Assembly: GCA_045046875.1 (NCBI GenBank)
Contig: JASFYY010000057.1
Span: forward strand, 1 to 22,761
Source of the DNA: Verrucomicrobiota bacterium
GTDB taxonomy: Bacteria; Verrucomicrobiota; Verrucomicrobiia; Verrucomicrobiales; DEV007
Reading direction: 5' to 3'
DNA: 22,761 nt
Below are positions 14,183 through 22,761 of this stretch, in pieces. Within the stretch, counting starts at the first letter, position 1. Each line of letters opens with the position of its first letter. The notes beneath the pieces were generated by a model. That model worked only from the letters and a program-made list of their open reading frames with translations. It did no database searches and was not told where the DNA came from. Position numbers and translations under genes: made by a program.

Positions 14183-14300
14183 GTCGAACGGTTGAGGCTA
14201 GCTGATCCTCTGCGAGGGCGAGCGTAGCTTGGTGGATAATGCATCAAAGTTAGAATGGACTGACAACGGGCAGAGGATTAGCTACGCCGTTTTGTTGAAC
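14183..14300 (-). repeat. attC site, family B (118 bp; 7-bp deletion vs other B copies)
   Basis: + strand: GTCGAAC..GGCTAGCTGATCCTCTGC...GCAGAGGATTAGCTACGCC-GTTTT-GTTGAAC. Confidence 0.88.
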
Positions 14301-14554
14301 TTATCGTTGAGGAGAAATGGCTCAGGGAAGTCGCCTATGAGATGCCAACCCTAATCAATTTCCTTGGTTATCTCAAGAAATTCAATAAAATCCTCCGGCA
14401 AGGGCTTTCCGGGTTTTCTGCTCAGCGCATCGATTTCTGACTGATTCGCCCCATCGGCGACAATCCGATCCTCGGGAATGAGGTCACACTCGAATATTTC
14501 AGCAGAGCGTTTTATACATCCAATCAGGCTTTCTAGCTCCTCACGGGCAATCAT
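14301..14554 (-). pseudogene. Truncated SMI1/KNR4 (SUKH)-like cassette gene
   Basis: GANQSEIDALSRKPGKPLPEDFIEFL resembles the SMI1/KNR4 N-terminus. TAG at 14351 follows 67 aa, and the cassette is too short for a full domain. Confidence 0.55.
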
Positions 14555-14558
14555 TCCA

Positions 14559-14685
14559 GTCGAACATCGAGCACAGGCAACCCGCTACTGGTAGCGGGCT
14601 TTCGTGTTCAAGTTGAGGGCTGAATTTTTCATTTAGGTTTTGACTGCGAGCAAGTAACGAGTTGCTCTGCTACATTTTCCTCACT
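14559..14685 (-). repeat. attC site, family A, degenerate (inverse core AAC mutated)
   Basis: GTCGAAC-ATCGA-GCACAGGCAACCCGCTAC...GTAACGAGTTGCTCTGCTAC-ATTTT-CCTCACT. Confidence 0.8.
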
Positions 14686-15387
14686 TTTAAGTCGGTTGTA
14701 ATAATCGTTCCGGACTTCTGGATCCATCATGATCTTGTAGTCAAACGAGCCACACTTGAAACAGGTATGCCATAAGGGTGGCCGAGGATAAAGACCAGGT
14801 ATCAATCCTTTCAATTTATCCCATAGGGTCTTGTGCCGAAATCTAGACTTTCCGATATAGCTACAGTCTTCGCATCGAGTGAAACTGCAAAACTCTTTTG
14901 GCAGGTCAAGGCGAAGACCATCAGCCATCAATGCAAACTCTGTTTTGAGGGCAGCGTCGAGATCCTGAAGATCATCGGGTGGATAGAAAATTTCTTCGTG
15001 GTCGGTCCCTTTGAAGGACAGTTCTTCCTCAATATCGGAAAAAACTGCCAGCAATGGATCTGAATAACCTGTATCCGCATAAATTCTCGCTAGCATATGT
15101 AGGGCCTCTTCTGCAGCAGTTTCGCCGCACTCGTAACTCCTTTGAACCAGCCCAGCAGACTGTTGTGCCTCTACAACCTCATTGACACACTCAATCTTCA
15201 ATTCCTTGCAGGAATTACGGAAATAGGACTCTATTTCCTCCGATTCGAATTTTGGGTTAAGTCCAGCAAGGATTCTGAGACTAGGAGTATCGGAACCTTC
15301 GCAAAGACGCTCGACAGCCCAGTCCACATAGAGACTTGAAAACGCAGAGCCCAGTGACCGCTTCAGCATTAGAGTGTCGGTCTCCAT
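14629..15387 (-). CDS. Cassette hypothetical protein with C-terminal CxxC...CxxC zinc ribbon
   Basis: Start reassigned to ATG 15387, 13 nt after the core. Motifs YVDWA..L.EGSDTPSLRILAGL and CEDC...CFKCG. The C-terminus reads into the attC. Confidence 0.8.
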   Translation of the reverse strand: METDTLMLKRSLGSAFSSLYVDWAVERLCEGSDTPSLRILAGLNPKFESEEIESYFRNSCKELKIECVNEVVEAQQSAGLVQRSYECGETAAEEALHMLARIYADTGYSDPLLAVFSDIEEELSFKGTDHEEIFYPPDDLQDLDAALKTEFALMADGLRLDLPKEFCSFTRCEDCSYIGKSRFRHKTLWDKLKGLIPGLYPRPPLWHTCFKCGSFDYKIMMDPEVRNDYYNRLKSEENVAEQLVTCSQSKPK

Positions 15388-15393
15388 TTTTTG

Positions 15394-15519
15394 AGCGAAC
15401 ATCAAGTCACACCGTATCCCTGGGCGGGAGCGCACGTTGACGAATAGTTTGATGGTTAAAATTAGGGTGAATCATAACTACGGGGCGGCTCAGGAATTCG
15501 GTACTGACTATTGTTAGGC
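15394..15519 (-). repeat. attC site, family C
   Basis: AGCGAAC..GTCACACCGTATCCCTG...CAGGAATTCGGTACTGAC-TATT-GTTAGGC. Homologous to 18932-19057. Confidence 0.85.
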
Positions 15520-15539
15520 ATTAATGTGCGGAATCTAGA

Positions 15540-16199
15540 TTACGGACTTGTCTTATCCCAACAGGTGAAGAGACTCTTAAAATCGTCACTCAGCTTTTCA
15601 ACATCTCCATTGAAGCCACTTTCGACGTCAATCCATACAATCCCTGAGCATTCATTTCCTTTTCGATAATCGAGACAAGTGAAAGCATGGCCATCCGTTT
15701 CGAGTATCATTAATCGGTCGAGTATCGACTTGTATGAGACCAGTTCCGACCCACCTTCCACGTCTCCACGAATTGTTAGCCACTCGTATACCGGAATCAC
15801 TGTGGCAAGCTTCTGATCCTCGAAGGGGTCGAGGGTTATGCCGGCAACGCCGTTGAACAGACTCTCCTCCTTTAGTGCCAATTCGTGGAACCAGCCCCCA
15901 TTCTGGTGCATCATTAATTGACGAAGGTCAGCGGGGAGTTTCACGCAATACTTCTCTTCAAAGGTTGCCAGCAACTTTGGGTTTAGGAGGCCAAATTCAG
16001 AGGAACCCTCAGTCAATATTGACCGATAATCAGCCTTGGCTGTCCATTCTTGAAACCTCTTCTTGAACTCCTTTTTTAGGATTTTCTCGCGCTCTGGAGA
16101 ATATTGATAGCAGGGCATACACATCCCAGCACACCTCTCAGCGGTATCCGGGAGCACCATTGCCTCACACTTTTTACAGGGTACGCGCTCAGTGGTCAT
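15540..16199 (-). CDS. Cassette SMI1/KNR4 (SUKH) family protein with N-terminal Cys-rich motif
   Basis: FEEKYCVKLPADLRQLMMHQNGG and DGHAFTCLDYR......IVWID......LSDDF motifs. The N-terminus has CKKC-x10-CAGMCMPC. Confidence 0.85.
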   Translation of the reverse strand: MTTERVPCKKCEAMVLPDTAERCAGMCMPCYQYSPEREKILKKEFKKRFQEWTAKADYRSILTEGSSEFGLLNPKLLATFEEKYCVKLPADLRQLMMHQNGGWFHELALKEESLFNGVAGITLDPFEDQKLATVIPVYEWLTIRGDVEGGSELVSYKSILDRLMILETDGHAFTCLDYRKGNECSGIVWIDVESGFNGDVEKLSDDFKSLFTCWDKTSP

Positions 16200-16216
16200 A
16201 TTGTGTAGATTTTATT

Positions 16217-16342
16217 TCCTAACGTCGAGCTCACCCAGCACTGGGTAGGGAGAGAGCGGGAACGAAGGGGTTGGTGTTTAAAGTCATGTCGGATTTTAAC
16301 ATCGGGGAGGCTCAGTGCTTGGTATACAGCGTTTTGCTCTGT
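16217..16342 (-). repeat. attC site, family D (inverse core AAC->AGC)
   Basis: TCCTAAC-GTCGA-GCTCACCCAGCACTG...CAGTGCTTGGTATACAGC-GTTTT-GCTCTGT. Confidence 0.8.
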
Positions 16343-16767
16343 CTTGGTGTGATATTCCATTTCCAGGAATGATGCCGAGCATCTTTGAGCCGGTTGGCAA
16401 TCCTGATTATCTTCCAATGTAGCCAGTTTCGAACCTCTCGGATCTCGTAGTCACCATTTAGGACGCCAAAGTTGAGTAATCCGCTCGGGCCACCGTAATT
16501 CTCTACCCAAGCAAGGGTTTTATCTTGATCCAATGGGTAGCCATCGATCCTGATACTTGAATCTGTCTTTACCAGCGATTCGTAAAAACATCTGCTCGAC
16601 TCATATCTAACAAGATCGTGGGGGCGAAACATCCACCAAGTCCTTTTGTTTTGAGATATCCGATCCTGCGTCATCCAGAGGAGATCTGTTGAAACATTTT
16701 GAGACGAGAGAAAATCGCGAAATTGCTCCACCGCTTTGTCGAATGCTGGTCGATCAGAGTATTTCAT
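16312..16767 (-). CDS. Cassette hypothetical protein
   Basis: 151-aa ORF starting 8 nt after core GTTCTGT and ending inside the attC. No recognised family. Confidence 0.75.
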   Translation of the reverse strand: MKYSDRPAFDKAVEQFRDFLSSQNVSTDLLWMTQDRISQNKRTWWMFRPHDLVRYESSRCFYESLVKTDSSIRIDGYPLDQDKTLAWVENYGGPSGLLNFGVLNGDYEIREVRNWLHWKIIRIANRLKDARHHSWKWNITPRQSKTLYTKH

Positions 16768-16768
16768 G

Positions 16769-16895
16769 ACAGAACGTCGAGCACAGGCAACCCGCTACTG
16801 GCAGCGAGCTTTCGTATTCAAGTTAAAGGTTAAAGTTTTCATTTAGATTTCGACTGGAGACTAGTAGCGGGTTGCTCTGCTGCGTTTTGTTCTAC
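16769..16895 (-). repeat. attC site, family A
   Basis: ACAGAAC-GTCGA-GCACAGGCAACCCGCTAC...GTAGCGGGTTGC[T]CTG[C]TGC-GTTTT-GTTCTAC, with two extrahelical bases. Confidence 0.93.
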
Positions 16896-18292
16896 CTAGG
16901 TTTGCCCTTCACGTAATTTTGCATTCCTTGATCCCGCCACCAAGACCGGATTTTCTCTATGGCCACATCTTTAGTCGCAATAGGTGCCTTCTCATCGTAA
17001 CTAAATCCAATACCAGTAAAAATTTGAATTGCCTCCGCAACTGCATCGCATCTGCGAATAGTCCACTCTGATTTGCCGTCCCTTGCGACCGCGTAGTCAT
17101 CTCTGAAGTCAAGTGCGTCAATCAGAAGGTGCATTGGAAATTTTGCCTTTGTATAGCCCTTTGGTAAACCTCCACGTCCACCATAAGCAATCTCGCATAG
17201 CATTTCTATAATTGCCGATCCCCTCTTCGATAGTGGGTTCTCTTTATTTTTAAGAAATAAGCGCTTTCTAATTTCTGCCTGGTACTTTTCGCTCCCGTAT
17301 AGGATCATCTGGCGAAGAGCGTAATCTTGGGCATTAGAGTCAGCGGCCCCGTCGTCAGGTAAGTCCTTTGGAAAATTATAACCACCAGTGAGATACGCAT
17401 CTGTAACTGTTGCCAATTTTGAATTGTCCCCAAGTTGGCACATCAGTGATGATAACTGCGGGAGCTGGTAAGGGTCTCTTGTATTACACATCTCGCGAAG
17501 CTTCTCCAGAACCTGCTCTTTCTGGCCATGTTTTTCAGCGAGCATATCCAGAAGTATGAGAATCTGATAAATCCCTGGATCTTCTTCGATCGCAATCCAT
17601 TTCTGTTCCACTTCTGACTTGCCGCGACTCTTAAGATACCATGACGTGATCGAAGCAATCGTCTTTTCCCGAATCTCAGAGTTCTCGTTGGAGAAGTAAG
17701 ATCCAGTTGAACTCCTCCGATAGAATGGAGTCGTAGTGAGTTCATTAAGGATTTGGATCGCCGCATCCTGATAGCGAAGGATTGTGCGCGAGGAAGCATT
17801 ATGACGCCAAAATCCTACTGAGCGGGTGGGACGTCGATCGTCAAGCAATTTGACTAATGCAGGAATTGCCGGTTGTCCTATCTCTTTGAGTTTGATTGCC
17901 GCGTTGGGAATCCCTTCGCGTTGACCGAAGTCCTGCAGAAGATAACACATACCGGGTTGGCTATGTTGATAGCAGTTCACATTGCGAAGATGGTAAATCC
18001 AATGATCTATTTGTTTCTCCAGGCTGAGATTCTTAACATCCTTGGACTCCCGCCACTCGGAATCCTCCCTAGCCATATTTTCCAATAGTTCGGCCAACTC
18101 TTTCGACTCCTTTGCATAATGACTTTCTGAAAATTTCACTGACACTTTACGAAAGAGCTTAGCTGCATATTTACGATCACCCTTATCTTGAAGAGAAGTG
18201 ACACCAGCGTTGAAGGTCTTCCACACTTTCTTTTCATTTCCTTCACACGCAAAGAGAAGAAATGATAAAACTAATAAAATGGCCGGCCGCAT
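16892..18292 (-). CDS. Cassette lipoprotein, alpha-helical (HEAT-like) hypothetical
   Basis: Lipobox LFAC and HEAT-like AAIKLKEIGQPAIPALVKLLDD. The stop TAG lies in the inverse core. Confidence 0.8.
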   Translation of the reverse strand: MRPAILLVLSFLLFACEGNEKKVWKTFNAGVTSLQDKGDRKYAAKLFRKVSVKFSESHYAKESKELAELLENMAREDSEWRESKDVKNLSLEKQIDHWIYHLRNVNCYQHSQPGMCYLLQDFGQREGIPNAAIKLKEIGQPAIPALVKLLDDRRPTRSVGFWRHNASSRTILRYQDAAIQILNELTTTPFYRRSSTGSYFSNENSEIREKTIASITSWYLKSRGKSEVEQKWIAIEEDPGIYQILILLDMLAEKHGQKEQVLEKLREMCNTRDPYQLPQLSSLMCQLGDNSKLATVTDAYLTGGYNFPKDLPDDGAADSNAQDYALRQMILYGSEKYQAEIRKRLFLKNKENPLSKRGSAIIEMLCEIAYGGRGGLPKGYTKAKFPMHLLIDALDFRDDYAVARDGKSEWTIRRCDAVAEAIQIFTGIGFSYDEKAPIATKDVAIEKIRSWWRDQGMQNYVKGKPR

Positions 18293-18300
18293 ATTTTAAG

Positions 18301-18425
18301 GTAGAACGAAAGAGGCTAGCTGATCCTCTGCGGGAGCGAGCGTAGCTTGGTGGATAATGTATCAAAGTTAGAATGAGCTGACAACTGAAAACGAGCAGAG
18401 GATTAGCTACGCCGTTTTGTTATGC
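18301..18425 (-). repeat. attC site, family B
   Basis: GTAGAAC..GGCTAGCTGATCCTCTGC...GCAGAGGATTAGCTA[C]GCC-GTTTT-GTTATGC. Confidence 0.92.
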
Positions 18426-18923
18426 CTTTGGCTTTAGAGGACGGGTGTCGCGAATACCGTGATAGGGATTTACGTATCCACCCTTCGGATCAACGAAATC
18501 CCATTCAACTGAGAATTTTATTTTACGATCGTCAATCACAACGGTGCAGATTGCAGAAATTTCGTAATGACCAGACATCTCTGTTGAAAACTTTTTCTCC
18601 TGAATTGATTGGACGTGCACTACTGATCCTTTGGGGAGTTGTATAATCTTTCGATATTTTTGCCCGTATGAAAAGAGTTCCGCAATTTCCCCCTCATTAA
18701 CTGTTGCCTCTGGCGAGTCTGGTGAATCAGAAAAGTAAAAAAAATTGTCAAGAATGTAATAGTGGTTGGGATTTTGATGCTCCCAAACACACGCAAAATC
18801 AGAATGAACTATCAGGTCAACTCCAACGAAATTTTTGTATTCCTTTAGTGAGGAAACGTTGCTAACAGAGGAGCCAGAACAACCAACCCAAAACAAGGCA
18901 ATGGCAAATCCAGCCTGTGTCAT
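18420..18923 (-). CDS. Cassette hypothetical lipoprotein
   Basis: MTQAGFAIALFWVGC lipobox-like start (alternative ATG 18935 overlaps the core). The stop TAA lies in inverse core GCATAAC. Confidence 0.75.
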   Translation of the reverse strand: MTQAGFAIALFWVGCSGSSVSNVSSLKEYKNFVGVDLIVHSDFACVWEHQNPNHYYILDNFFYFSDSPDSPEATVNEGEIAELFSYGQKYRKIIQLPKGSVVHVQSIQEKKFSTEMSGHYEISAICTVVIDDRKIKFSVEWDFVDPKGGYVNPYHGIRDTRPLKPKA

Positions 18924-18931
18924 ATTTCTTG

Positions 18932-19057
18932 GCATAACGTCGAGTCACACCGCATCCCTGAGAGGGAGCGCGCGTTGACGAAGGGTTTGATGGTTAAAAT
19001 TAAAGTAAATCATAACTATGGGGCGGCTCAGGGATTCGGTAATAACTATTGTTCGGC
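18932..19057 (-). repeat. attC site, family C
   Basis: GCATAAC-GTCGA-GTCACACCGCATCCCTGAG...CTCAGGGATTCGGTAATAAC-TATT-GTTCGGC. Confidence 0.88.
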
Positions 19058-19730
19058 AACTGTTTTTTCGGGGCCGACGAACGGTTCAGTCTCACGTTGG
19101 CTCAGAATCTCTCGCATATATCGAGGCAAGTCCTCATATCGGCAAATGTCAATACTGTGTTCATATCCGCCCTCAATACTGTCTCCATCTTCTACACTCT
19201 GTATCCAAAGTTCGCCTGGGGGGATCTCATCTCGCCGTTCGTCATCTTCTCCACCTCGCACGATGTAGATCGCCGAAATGAAACCAATCTTCACTCAACG
19301 AATAGAGGATGCCGCGCTCCCATTTTTCCTCGAACAGTCCTTTGAAGTGGATCGAAATGGCGTCTCCGAAGTTTTCGTGAATTGCCTCAAAGAGGCGTAA
19401 TCTGAAAACTCGCCCCTCGACTCGGGCATCTGGAATTTCTACGAGCAAATTTCCGTATTTGTCATGCCGTTTTCGAAGAGATTCTAAAATAAATTTGGAC
19501 AAATCCGCGCGTAGCTCATCAACGATACGCTGAAGGCGCACTTGATCTGCCGCATTAAGGCCGATGGCGTTCATAGTGTGAACGTTCAGTGCGCCCGTGT
19601 GAAATTCAATCAGATCGAGGGAAATGATCTCTGGGTCTTGAATCCCGACAATCGGAACCTCTCCGTCTGGTGAATCACAGCCTGCAATAGCAAGTAGCAA
19701 CAGTGCCGATGCGAGTCTCCAGTGTTTCAT
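19046..19730 (-). pseudogene. Cassette lipoprotein gene, apparently frameshifted (19242-19730 plus 19046-19294)
   Basis: Lipobox IAGC. Two overlapping ORFs in different frames together fill one cassette, and the second ends in the attC (..VAEQ*). Confidence 0.6.
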
Positions 19731-19736
19731 TTCTTA

Positions 19737-19862
19737 GCCGAACGTCGAGCACAGGCAACCCGCTAGCTGGGGCAAGTGTGAACGAAGATATTAAGGGTTA
19801 AAGTTTTCATTTATTCGTAACTACGGGGCGGCTAGCGGGTTGCTCTGCTGCGTTTGTTCTGC
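19737..19862 (-). repeat. attC site, family A
   Basis: GCCGAAC-GTCGA-GCACAGGCAACCCGCTAGC...GCTAGCGGGTTGCTCTGCTGC-GTTT-GTTCTGC. Confidence 0.92.
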
Positions 19863-19888
19863 TTCTTATTCTGACCTTCGGCCGCATA

Positions 19889-20440
19889 TTAGTCACTCAG
19901 AATAGATATTTTTAAGCCCTTCGCTTTAAAGGTTGTGGCCCGTGCGGCGTCGCCTTCTTTAAAGGCAGAGATTACTTTCATTGAAAAACGCATTGTCCAA
20001 TCCCCAGGTTGTAGGATGAAATAATCATAGAGTTCAATTTCGAAGGTTTTGCTCTCGCCTTTTCGGAACGCATGAACTCGCGATGAGTATCCGACTTTTA
20101 TTCCATCGCCAAATACGATTGCTCCTCGCTTAGTGAACGGGCAAACGATTCCATTGGAATCAATAAGACCAACCTTGCAAGAGAGGATCATGTTTGGTTC
20201 GATAACTGTTACGAGACTTGCTGATATGTTTGCGACCTTAATCTGAATTTTACAGCTGCCATCTTTGGAGTTTTGCGGGACGAATATTTTTACGCCAATC
20301 TCATTTGATTCCAATTCTATCACACTTTCTTTGCGAGGATTGCTAGAGTCCGCAGCGAAAGCAGTGGGGCCGTTGAGGATAAATACCAAACTTACAGCAA
20401 CCGCTGAGATTACTTTCATGGAATGGGTGCGATGCTTCAC
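19889..20440 (-). CDS. Cassette secreted hypothetical protein (beta-rich)
   Basis: Signal peptide ending AFA. The GTG start is 14 nt after the core. Confidence 0.75.
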   Translation of the reverse strand: MKHRTHSMKVISAVAVSLVFILNGPTAFAADSSNPRKESVIELESNEIGVKIFVPQNSKDGSCKIQIKVANISASLVTVIEPNMILSCKVGLIDSNGIVCPFTKRGAIVFGDGIKVGYSSRVHAFRKGESKTFEIELYDYFILQPGDWTMRFSMKVISAFKEGDAARATTFKAKGLKISILSD

Positions 20441-20447
20441 TTCTTAG

Positions 20448-20575
20448 GCACAACGTAGAGCACAGGCAACCCGCTACTGGCAGCGAGCATTTGTGTTCAT
20501 GTTGAGGGTTAAAGTTTTCATTTAGGTTTTAACTAAAGGGGGGGTAGCGGGTTGCTCTGCTGCGTTTTGTTCTGC
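20448..20575 (-). repeat. attC site, family A
   Basis: GCACAAC-GTAGA-GCACAGGCAACCCGCTAC...GTAGCGGGTTGCTCTGCTGC-GTTTT-GTTCTGC. Confidence 0.93.
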
Positions 20576-20591
20576 TATGTCTCGATGAGCG

Positions 20592-21224
20592 CTATCGAAC
20601 GAGCGATTCGTAAAAACTAGATGCTGACTCATAGGCACCATTATGGCAATAAAGATCATCAATAAACCATCGCCCAGATTCCTTAACTAAAATCACAGAA
20701 GTATTTCGTTCGTGACCTGAATACTGAGCTCCCTTCCCCCATACGTAGATTACATCTGTTATTGCTTTTGGGTAAGTTCCCGCGACATCTGGAATCGCAC
20801 CTTCCTCGATGGTGGTTCTGTGCGCTCCCCCTACCTTAAAAGATGTCGGAGGTTCCCATGATTGTAATATCGCTTTTCTTCCGCCGATTCCTAAAGGATG
20901 GTAAACATATGGTCCTGGCTGCACCACGCTTCTACCTGCATATTGGGCTTTCGAAGTAGCGATCCTATGCCTGAGATTACCGGAGAAATATTTCCGGCAG
21001 AACTCCGCGTCCCGGAGGAGGGCCTCGTCATAACGAGCGGAGAAAACTCTCTGCATAAATCCCCTCACTGCATCTTCCGGTGACTCAAAACCATCCGAAT
21101 GTTTGCGATCATCCGCATATGGAATATCAAAACTTTCGGCATCCGGAAACGTAGTGCGATCCGACATGCTAAAGTAACAGCACGAAGACAATGCTAGACA
21201 CAAGAGCACGATTGCGTTTCTCAT
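20592..21224 (-). CDS. Cassette lipoprotein, possibly NTF2-like/DUF3828-like
   Basis: Lipobox LSSC, SPEDAVRGF and C-terminal LVKESGRWFIDD. The family call is tentative. Confidence 0.7.
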   Translation of the reverse strand: MRNAIVLLCLALSSCCYFSMSDRTTFPDAESFDIPYADDRKHSDGFESPEDAVRGFMQRVFSARYDEALLRDAEFCRKYFSGNLRHRIATSKAQYAGRSVVQPGPYVYHPLGIGGRKAILQSWEPPTSFKVGGAHRTTIEEGAIPDVAGTYPKAITDVIYVWGKGAQYSGHERNTSVILVKESGRWFIDDLYCHNGAYESASSFYESLVR

Positions 21225-21234
21225 GATTTTATAG

Positions 21235-21357
21235 GCAGAACGTGGAGACTAGCCAGCCGCTACCGGCGGCGGGCGTTGCTTCTGGGCTTGATGTTAAAAT
21301 TACGGTGATCCATAACAGTTAGCGGGTAGCGGCTTGGTCTACGCCGTTTTGTTCGGC
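21235..21357 (-). repeat. attC site, family E
   Basis: GCAGAAC-GTGGA-GACTAGCCAGCCGCTACC...GGTAGCGGC[T]TGG[T]CTA[C]GCC-GTTTT-GTTCGGC. Confidence 0.9.
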
Positions 21358-22143
21358 ACGTGCGGTCTTCGACGTGGCTTCACTATGCGTTAAGGCAACC
21401 ATCGGTTCAATGAATTTACGGATCGATTCGTTCAAACGTTCGTATCCGGCTTCTGAAAGATGAAGAAAATCGCCACTATAGTCAGAGGTGACGTGCCCAT
21501 CGTCGCCAGCCAACACCTCGGCGCTTACAAAGACCGTAACACCGTCTGAAGCCAAGGACTGAAGTTACTTATTTACCTCGTCAATCGCGGGGTCAACTCG
21601 ATCAGACCAGAATGGTCTACGCTCGAAAGGGAGTTCGCCCACAGGAAAGATTGTGGTGACAATAACATGAGCGCCATGATCCCGAGATCGACTGACGATG
21701 TGCCCAATATTCTCCTTACAGCGTTCGATGATCTGCGCTTCGGCGTCTGGAAAGAGCGGAATTGTCTTAAGATCATTGATACCAGCCTGCAATACAACGA
21801 TCCTAGGGCTGAGCGGAGCTAGATGATAACCGAACCTGCCGAGTATTTGCTCAGTGGTTTGCGCGCCAATTCCTAGATTCAATGTTCGTCCTTCAAGCCA
21901 TGTTGGCTCCGGCCACTGCGCCGCTCGAGAATCGCCGTAAAAGACCAGAGCGAGATTTTCCGGCGAGGATGTCACTTCAAGCTGTCTCAATCCCAATGGG
22001 TCGAGCCGCACGGCATTTGCTTCGCTGTAGTAGAGCTTCGCTCGCTGAAATACGATGTAGTTCGCCGCAAATGCGCCGACCAGAAAAAGGACGAGTAGCG
22101 CACCAATAGAGCGTTTGAGGATCGTCCTTCGTGCTACTCTCAT
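21319..22143 (-). pseudogene. Cassette SGNH/GDSL hydrolase with in-frame nonsense codon at 21565-21567
   Basis: GDSR, GIGAQ and GIND blocks precede the TAA. The catalytic DFLH follows it in the same frame (EVNK*LQSLASDG). Confidence 0.88.
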
Positions 22144-22149
22144 TTCTTT

Positions 22150-22274
22150 GCCGAACGGTTGAGGCTAGCTGATCCTCTGCGGGAGCAAGCGTAGCTTGGT
22201 GGACAAGGTATCAAAGTTAGAATTGGATGACAACTGAAAATGGGCAGAGGATTAGCTACGCCGTTTTGTTGTGC
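22150..22274 (-). repeat. attC site, family B
   Basis: GCCGAAC-GGTTGA-GGCTAGCTGATCCTCTGC...GCAGAGGATTAGCTACGCC-GTTTT-GTTGTGC. Confidence 0.92.
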
Positions 22275-22281
22275 TCCGAAT

Positions 22282-22608
22282 TCAGTTTGACGTAATTGCG
22301 GAATTAACAGCCGAAATGGTATTAGTTGATTTATCAATCGTAATCGACACAATCAATCCCTGTTCAGAATACTGCTTCGTTTGATAATCAAAAATATAAA
22401 TAGACCTTCCATTCACTGACTCGTATTTGTCGGCTTTAGATAAAAAGGTTTGAAACTCATCTGCGCTACTTCCAATCGGAAACAGCTTCGCAAGCCGAAT
22501 TTCGAACCCTGAATCACTATAAGTCTCGCAACATGCGTGAAATTTACTTTCATAATTTTGAGAGCACGAGCATACTAAGATCAGTGACAATAAGAGAAGC
22601 TTATTCAT
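22282..22608 (-). CDS. Cassette small hypothetical lipoprotein
   Basis: MNKLLLLSLILVCSC lipobox-like start. The ATG is 13 nt after the core. Confidence 0.78.
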   Translation of the reverse strand: MNKLLLLSLILVCSCSQNYESKFHACCETYSDSGFEIRLAKLFPIGSSADEFQTFLSKADKYESVNGRSIYIFDYQTKQYSEQGLIVSITIDKSTNTISAVNSAITSN

Positions 22609-22614
22609 TTATTG

Positions 22615-22696
22615 GCACAACGTCGAGCACAGGCAACCCGCTACTGGCAGCGAGCTTTCGTGTTCAAGTTGAGGGTTAAAGTTTTCATTTAGATTT
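22615..22696 (-). repeat. attC site, family A, interrupted in its loop by a group II intron
   Basis: Aligns with 16769-16850 up to ...CATTTAGATTT, then similarity stops abruptly. Confidence 0.9.
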
Positions 22697-22761
22697 GTAG
22701 AGTAGGGACGGCTCCGACTTGGAGCCATCCCCCTCATCAAACCGGACGTGCGGTTCTCCCG
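22697..22761 (-). mobile_element. Group II intron 3' end (distal domain V and domain VI)
   Basis: The minus strand reads CGGGAGAACCGC-AC-GTCCGGTTT (DV with AC bulge), GAT, then the DVI stem GAG-GGGGATGGCTCC-AAGTC-GGAGCCGTCCCT-[A]-CTC-TAC with a bulged branch A and an AY end. Confidence 0.9.

Follow-up and report, generated by a model that had tools for sequence, protein, structure and literature searches.

The window analysed here is contig C57 (22,761 nt) of a Verrucomicrobiota assembly of 5.6 Mb and 51% GC. From about 14.2 kb to its end the window carries an integron cassette array on the minus strand, with single co-oriented genes between attC recombination sites according to its open reading frame (ORF) map. 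No integrase was found within the window; elsewhere in the assembly the integrase model TIGR02249 gave two matches above its cut-off, of which one contains an internal stop and the other ends at the contig edge. The subject of this report is the loop of these attC sites, in which a preliminary description had noted a 9-mer, RTYAAARTT (plus strand), at a near-constant position in sites with differing stems, and had suggested an undescribed cis-element. Twelve sites in five stem families (A to E) were delimited.

14183..14300, minus strand: attC of family D, 118 bp with a 7-bp deletion, motif at 14243; the last site of the array in gene direction
14559..14685, minus strand: decayed attC of family A, degenerate motif at 14619
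15394..15519, minus strand: attC of family B, motif at 15455
16217..16342, minus strand: attC of family C, motif variant at 16277
16769..16895, minus strand: attC of family A, motif at 16829, wider tandem block at about 16821-16836
18301..18425, minus strand: attC of family D, motif at 18361
18932..19057, minus strand: attC of family B, motif at 18993
19737..19862, minus strand: attC with a family-A stem and a mosaic loop, motif at 19797
20448..20575, minus strand: attC of family A, motif at 20508
21235..21357, minus strand: attC of family E, motif at 21293
22150..22274, minus strand: attC of family D, motif at 22210
22615..22696, minus strand: half attC of family A, loop interrupted by a group II intron, motif at 22675

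All motif coordinates of the preliminary description were correct, and the motif starts 58-61 nt from the left end in 12/12 sites (60, 60, 61, 60, 60, 60, 61, 60, 60, 58, 60 and 60 in the order above). Ten of the 11 full sites measured 123-128 bp (118, 127, 126, 126, 127, 125, 126, 126, 128, 123 and 125 bp); the 118-bp outlier had 7 bp less than its 125-bp sisters, and the twelfth site (22615) is split by the intron. The consensus was exact in ten sites, and the sites at 16277 and 14619 deviated from it. Exact occurrences numbered 10 on the plus strand and 0 on the minus strand of the window, every one within an attC, and the whole-genome background was 4.9e-5 per position.

The sites have an AAC...GTT R box, unpaired spacers of 5-6 nt, a paired L box and stem, and extrahelical bases on one arm, with two-sided changes in 16/17 predicted pairs. 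The 11 top mutual information (MI) pairs were all stem pairs. The plus strand of the window corresponds to the attC bottom strand, as read from the extrahelical bases on the 3' arm. Contig joints omitting whole cassettes in three metagenomes fit bottom-strand recombination by IntI, but other arrays may be their source.

Loop conservation within one attC lineage

Across the genome 55 attC-like matches were obtained, spread over many contigs, and their loops aligned end to end. Because the loops align over their full length, the five stem families are not independent origins; sequence comparison showed them to be branches of one attC lineage of ~126 bp, which explains the shared length and the loop homology. 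The fixed position of the 9-mer in differing stem families was upheld, but the 9-mer is no lone island, the whole loop being homologous across all five. A covariance model was built from 31 own-genome sites, and matches were found in 95/151 genomes of the order (presumably Verrucomicrobiales) and in 11/151 of a phylum-wide sample. A rescan of 109 loci (638 kb) by stem structure only was meant to lessen loop bias, of which some is left as the loci were centred on model matches. It gave 250 unique attC sites, vs. 0 in a 111-kb shuffled control, in length classes near 59, 85-102, 106 and 126 bp. For alignment, 140 sites of 121-130 bp were retained (2 false sites removed) and reduced to 74 non-redundant sites (1 reversed and 2 misaligned rows removed).

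The exact 9-mer was present in 26/41 sites of the window's genus and in 2/99 sites elsewhere, and is therefore genus-specific. Three bottom-strand loop islands were conserved, G.G.GCG (alignment columns 28-34), GGTTRAnGGTTnnAAT (49-64) and RACTC (80-84), and the 9-mer occupies columns 57-65. Outside the genus its GTT, A62 and T64 were kept (0.67-0.91), but A60 and A61 were not (0.12 and 0.19). As read from the alignment, the 9-mer is an AT-shifted, genus-level form of the wider block GGTTRAnGGTTnnAAT. Among pairs of own-genus and other sites with stems less than 50% alike (794/969 pairs), identity was 0.62 and 0.59 in the two block halves vs. 0.34 and 0.32 in the flanking loop. The reservation of the preliminary description, that the motif might be conserved no more than its loop surroundings, was thus not borne out (59% vs. 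32-34%).

Uniform-rate simulation on the loop tree did not reach the observed column clustering (0/300 in each of six settings), and 10 columns were conserved at ≥85%, vs. 0.5-3.1 in the simulations. Conserved and variable bases alternate within the block. The stems covaried and no covariation was detected in the loop; outer-stem pairs lay far above column expectation, with both candidate inner helices at expectation, and RNAalifold on 150 sites gave 17 pairs, in the outer stem only. These comparisons show selection on the loop as a sequence, not as a fold. The block occurred in three reading frames (30/15/5). Its within-family rate of 0.045 was not used as evidence, since many sites were fetched with a pattern fixing those bases. 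The proposed new cis-element stands as a constrained feature at a fixed position, but its unit is the 16-nt tandem block with an upstream ATG and not the 9-mer.

A loop-only pattern was run over GTDB genomes and gave at least 124 matches at at least 121 loci. Among the matches listed, 64 satisfied the strict structure test, with an offset of 48-51, and all but 2 (Flavobacterium) of the remaining 60 lay, by eye, in damaged, half or chimeric attC; 71/80 titled ones were Verrucomicrobia. As the pattern was derived from this order, taxonomic bias is expected, and the informative part is that it had no occurrence outside attC.

Several further observations were made on the lineage. A few records titled Alphaproteobacteria, Planctomycetes and Lentisphaerales carry it (loci L117, L130, L153, L154 and L185), by transfer or mis-binning. 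In the complete genome G029 (L063-L067), a 106-bp attC family (at least 68 copies) shares its arrays with 32 sites of the 126-bp class, and a RAC-N5-GCG element near the stem is seemingly common to the 96-, 106- and 126-bp classes. A 93-bp attC family was near-identical in five genera of three families (L051, L062, L032, L072 and L054), a spread that points to recent cassette exchange across the order. Chimeric attC, in which arms from two families (left from one, right from the other) meet within the loop, were found in G000 (C13, C25, C43 and C133) and at L142, L158 and L194. At L121, L149 and L158 the R end of three attC sites was replaced by the same foreign sequence, possibly an attC-targeting insertion sequence. 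In another order, some sites of a 104-105-bp class (L089, L091, L096, L098, L103 and L109) keep the tandem block without the left loop part and the ATG.

A short reading frame starting in the loop

In cassette sense, a loop frame of 15-23 codons is open through the loop and stops in the 3' stem arm. A frame with ATG was present in 9/12 window sites, with a gap of 9-54 nt to the next cassette gene. The frames were as follows.

14585..14632, minus strand: mini-ORF, ATG, 15 codons, stop in the 3' stem arm
15407..15475, minus strand: mini-ORF, ATG, 22 codons
16231..16287, minus strand: mini-ORF, ATG, 18 codons (23 codons from the in-frame ATG at 16302)
16795..16842, minus strand: mini-ORF, ATG, 15 codons, 9-mer in codons 2-5, end 27 nt ahead of the next ATG (16767)
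18945..19013, minus strand: mini-ORF, ATG, 22 codons, end 9 nt ahead of the next ATG (18935)
19763..19810, minus strand: mini-ORF, ATG, 15 codons
20474..20521, minus strand: mini-ORF, ATG, 15 codons
21260..21313, minus strand: mini-ORF, ATG, 17 codons
22641..22688, minus strand: mini-ORF, ATG, 15 codons, start 8 nt past the intron 3' end
14198..14266, minus strand: family D, TTG-led 22-codon frame without ATG, weak candidate
18316..18384, minus strand: family D, TTG-led 22-codon frame without ATG, weak candidate
22165..22233, minus strand: family D, TTG-led 22-codon frame without ATG, weak candidate

A sense-strand ATG just ahead of the block was found in 128/165 sites vs. 81 ± 6 in shuffles; ATG was absent from the search pattern. 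Two ATG zones were mutually exclusive across 76 loop families (217 sites), with neither in 23, one in 33 and 18, and both in 2 (Fisher p = 1.7e-4; p = 0.02 with coarser clustering). For 10 close families (89 copies; an eleventh family, without ATG, was excluded), ATG changes affected 3/267 bases, compared with per-base rates of 0.099 elsewhere in the loop and 0.031 in the stems, and the ATG was the most stable of 55 triplet offsets tested. The three changes gave TTG, GTG and AGG, the AGG copy also being without its stop; stop codons were altered in 8 copies, of which 7/8 retained a stop. When pairs were added (up to 35 groups), the ATG was altered in 7 copies, to GTG, GTG, TTG, ATT, ATA, AGG and GCA.

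Premature loop stops occurred in 4/57 in the ATG frame vs. 28.5/57 in the other frames. Swapping of stem arms among 53 units lowered in-frame stops from 0.89 to 0.54, and 0/5000 swaps attained 0.89; the arm frame bearing the stop tracked the ATG in 16/19 vs. 6/19 in one class and in 29/31 vs. 5/31 in the other. The frame label changed 27 times on a tree of 81 representatives, at least 6 times per group on starred branches, with the tree poorly resolved and frame calls noisy. A held-out test on 48 new sites from 15 genomes found the ATG in 32 (14.6 expected) and a closed frame in 31/32 (19.5 in other frames); for the novel types (n = 18) the ATG was present in 11 (6.1 expected) and closed in 11/11.

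The peptide was not under selection (dN/dS = 0.89; the two other frames gave 1.01 and 0.84). Scores for the 21 nt behind the loop ATG (3.7) resembled those of genuine gene starts (2.4), internal ATGs scoring -2.6, and base make-up after the ATG, the 9-mer included, resembled the first codons of real genes here. Shine-Dalgarno (SD)-like words preceded 11% of starts in the host vs. 13% of internal ATGs, no SD sequence was evident ahead of the loop ATGs, and the 16S 3' end was not found in the assembly. The AUG region was more open than loop shuffles in 49/57.

From these substitution and frame patterns, the loop ATG is probably kept as a start codon, and this role would, on balance, also account for the block. 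The second statement is made with less confidence than the first because the block is conserved in three frames, and occurs without ATG in 3/9 sites of the 104-105-bp class, and because about a third of families are ATG-less.

We lean towards a reading in which the loop provides a translational relay built into each site, comparable to ORF-11 of attI1. The loop in the cassette-sense mRNA has a start codon, then a G-poor, A/C-rich stretch that is the complement of the 9-mer and tandem block; A/C-rich repeats behind a start codon raise translation. In this host, where SD sequences are seldom used, a ribosome would start or restart at the loop AUG before the long RNA hairpin of the attC closes. 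As the AUG is transcribed earlier than the 3' arm, the ribosome could load, prevent the hairpin from closing and resume at the following gene. The translating ribosome would keep the 3' arm open and pass on to the following cassette gene, so that the act of translation would count rather than the peptide, and the 9-mer would be the local AT-rich version of the start-proximal part of the frame. According to the available text of PMC8876359 (citing Jacquier 2009, Hanau-Bercot 2002), attC hairpins in mRNA can impede ribosomes and short ORFs within attC are able to lift this obstacle; ORF-11 acts by being translated, irrespective of its peptide. A further step, which we put forward tentatively and with somewhat less than even confidence, is that the site may be a two-job element, its stem read as DNA by the integrase and its loop as mRNA with an SD-free relay, the tandem AACC block being a specific initiation signal.

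A number of results weigh against the relay. The ATG was absent from 24/81 representative sites, including family D of the window and one mostly ATG-less clade, and in another order the tandem block stands without an ATG-led loop frame in 3/9 sites of the 104-105-bp class. Conservation of the block extends to single bases in each of the three frames, and a simple need for an unstructured, G-poor stretch explains this incompletely; AACC ranked 52/244 among 4-mers enriched behind true starts, and the upstream context of the loop ATG was weak (-1.9 vs. 2.7 for true starts). A closed loop ORF was present in 0/21, 0/14 and 12/68 sites of other length classes, and those function without it. The sites are kin, with ~8 start/stop layouts, so the p-values given above are overstated. 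Finally, attC deletion in class 1 integrons altered downstream expression in a minority of cases only, in the available part of PMC11511950.

Competing explanations for the block

The tandem block could be a separate site, bound by a host factor or by the additional N-terminal region (~140 residues) of the order's integrases, that serves recombination control or cassette genesis while the mini-ORF is independent of it. Base-level conservation whatever the frame or ATG position, the two direct GTT-led repeats spaced 7 nt apart, and the ATG-less blocks of the 104-105-bp class would suit such a site. Two integrases of 469 aa (L273:1492-2901) and 458 aa (L275:1075-2451) also have no Pfam match before residue ~143; a homologue search with the N-terminal region left the query alone among 315 candidates of near length, and no conclusion was drawn. 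The block is dispensable for cassette status, however, as the ~106-bp family makes up 68/105 sites in one complete genome. A recombinase site, one of the roles proposed in the preliminary description, was not supported as a requirement, the block being present in 0/69 sites of 106-108 bp and 0/30 of 85-102 bp from the same kinds of arrays. The block was not enriched elsewhere in the genome (ratios 0.9-1.5, small counts), its score was lower in ATG-less sites (9.8 vs. 11.0 of 13), and a Vibrio long-loop swap conferred no integrase specificity (0/72; available text of PMC12614218). A separate binding site is considered unlikely.

Plain inheritance is judged more doubtful again. It would make the block and ATG leftovers of a common ancestor, spread by cassettes moving between genera and by loop swaps, and it draws on the homology of the whole loop across sites, on near-identical attC families in different families of the order, and on chimeric sites (3/81 by a strict test, several by eye in the own genome); 1-nt alignment slips are also able to produce fast and slow blocks. 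The failure of uniform-rate simulation to give the observed clustering and the interleaving of conserved and variable bases speak against it, and for the ATG it is largely refuted, since ATG and stop behave as selected within close families.

A promoter in the loop, whether the antisense -10 box proposed in the preliminary description or one in sense orientation used by an alternative sigma factor, appears improbable. TAAAAT/TAAAGT is present in the own genus, and one sense sigma-70-like match with a TG extension lies in the family-D site 18301..18425 (18384-18356, minus strand), the only one in the window attCs. By eye, tRNA leaders of the own genome carry ordinary TTG...TAnnnT promoters. The sigma-70 pattern (hexamers 16-18 nt apart, T-12, A-11, T-7) was not supported for the loop on either strand, the nearest TTGAC lying 14 nt from the hexamer and in some families only. 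The antisense -10 box failed on two counts: the A at -11 was present in 83% of own-genus sites but in 12% of others, and sigma-70-like matches in the array were fewer than in shuffles (5 vs. 11.2), with none on the antisense strand at the motif. Alternative sigma factors were compared by eye only, against consensus sequences.

That the 9-mer forms the 5' side of an inner hairpin promoting bottom-strand folding is very improbable, for although columns 56-64 are complementary in consensus to columns 75-83 and the bottom strand was predicted more stable in 31/33 stem families, neither proposed inner helix paired more than column make-up predicts, the outer stem exceeding it widely, and RNAalifold placed no pair inside the loop. 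Inner hairpins H1 and H2 were an initial reading and were dropped on the covariation and RNAalifold results. An uptake, Chi or KOPS-type genome signal was rejected (523 9-mers observed vs. 579 expected in the test outside attC), as were a conserved peptide (three frames, dN/dS like other frames) and loop repeats as stem decoys (no such pair in the 40 top MI pairs). Likeness to IHF, XerD, DnaA, boxA, ECF or G-quadruplex sequences, judged by eye against consensus sequences, was not consistent across families.

Cassette genes and integrase loci were also inspected. SMI1/KNR4 (SUKH) and GDSL-like hydrolase matches in Pfam were obtained for cassette genes at 15540-16199 and 21565-22143 of the window, and none in eight other cassette proteins tested. 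Besides its 162-aa gene, the short or gene-poor cassette between attC 18932 and 19737 may hold a second small ORF (19046-19294). At L001 the integrase gene (1092-2454) is oriented towards the cassettes; an internal stop and a probable frameshift disrupt it. The probable attI, near 2583-2632, has a long inverted repeat ahead of it. Upstream of the integrase gene lies TGTTC-N4-GAACA (L001:1029-1050), which matches the Verrucomicrobia LexA box, suggesting SOS control.

The loop intron, known systems and significance

The intron at the end of the window lies in the loop of its twelfth attC.

22697..22761, minus strand: 3' end (domains V-VI) of a group II intron, cassette-sense, in the attC loop, ended by the contig edge

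Its Rfam Intron_gpII match scored 24.5 bits, below the gathering score, with the sequence partial at the contig end. A full copy of 1,418 nt was found in L239, its 65-nt end identical to that of the window. Six near-identical 3' ends (2 in the own genome, 3 in G003 and 1 in G005) all lay at one loop position in at least 4 stem types, and a relative in another family (G031) occupied the same position in one clear and one decayed site; 17 more distant 3' ends were inspected and were not at that position. Both observed 5' junctions end GAGTTG, the complement of the RACTC island, placing the insertion at GAGTTG/AAA, sense strand, mid-loop, and the intron has a CGACUC hairpin loop. In the full copy the reverse transcriptase (RT) remnant is internally deleted without a Pfam match, and a short internal repeat is present. 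For a IIB-like group II intron a domain V/VI end, a GUGYG-like 5' end, an RT remnant and a 6-nt EBS1 loop matching the 5' exon would be expected; the ends, the RT remnant and the CGACUC loop were detected, and IIB-like is a tentative subclass with the RT deleted. Bottom-strand insertion at TTGT/T, the mark of group IIC-attC introns, was not found for the loop intron. No group II RT above threshold was found in the own assembly, where intron copies end at contig edges. The intron search matched 93 genomes, most at the short internal repeat only and not the intron, and an intron-free allele was found in a metagenome contig. For the intron the conserved loop serves as an address; the intron does not explain loop conservation. 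Loci of the intron lineage were window 22697-22761, G000:C26 from 25365, L231, L232, L234, L236, L239, L279, L281 and L282. Separately, attC sites ending TTGT then GTGTG, the expected IIC-attC insertion pattern, were seen at L164, L172, L193, L197, L212 and L225.

Comparisons with known systems were drawn from the available text of the papers cited. Short ORFs of attC (Jacquier et al. 2009 via PMC8876359, PMC11511950) likewise lie on the sense strand, with proposed termination-reinitiation preventing the RNA hairpin. Those are few anecdotal cases in mobile integrons that start near the stop of the upstream gene (PMC8876359, PMC11511950), whereas the frame described here is fixed in an order-wide chromosomal lineage, starts mid-loop and bears signs of selection on start and stop; the term "undescribed" in the preliminary description therefore holds in part. 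ORF-11/ORF-17 of attI1 have 11-18 codons and end 2-62 nt before a cassette gene without its own ribosome site, vs. 15-23 codons and 9-54 nt here, and the peptide is of little importance in both; they are located in attI, benefit only the first cassette and have an SD sequence, whereas the present frames come with every lineage cassette and have none (PMC8876359). Vibrio VCR-type attC are similarly long (120-129 bp), with long loops homogeneous within a species (PMC5371416, PMC12614218), and since these are already long and even in length (PMC5371416), constant length alone is not new. Unlike VCR, dozens of stem families share one loop plan here; VCR loops, from the primers of the paper, are G/T-rich on the top strand, whereas the skew here is on the bottom strand (PMC5371416, PMC12614218). 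Group IIC-attC introns, like the loop intron, target attC, but on the bottom strand at TTGT/T and antisense to genes, in contrast to sense-strand, mid-loop insertion with a 6-nt match (PMC3001079, PMC7923331).

In the accessible text of PMC5027507 and PMC8946536, attC loops are held to be variable and to act via folding and strand skew. This lineage is absent from the 11 taxon attC models of PMC8352920 as available, and Verrucomicrobia are unmentioned in its main text. The lineage, loop block and lineage-wide loop ORF were unreported in the literature searched, most subscription papers and supplements lying outside it, and attC tables of surveys may list the sites.

The loop is usually treated as variable filler that affects DNA folding only, and the expression of distant cassettes in long chromosomal arrays calls for an explanation. 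The lineage forms a natural series in which stems vary while start codon and frame are kept, and this bears on whether attC passes ribosomes along an array. If the two-job reading is true, the stem would drift freely by compensatory change, and each cassette would supply a translation hand-over to whichever follows. It would also give a rationale for why long attC loops keep one length and offer a fixed address, exploited by a sense-strand group II intron, and the block would be a candidate initiation signal for a phylum seemingly without SD use.

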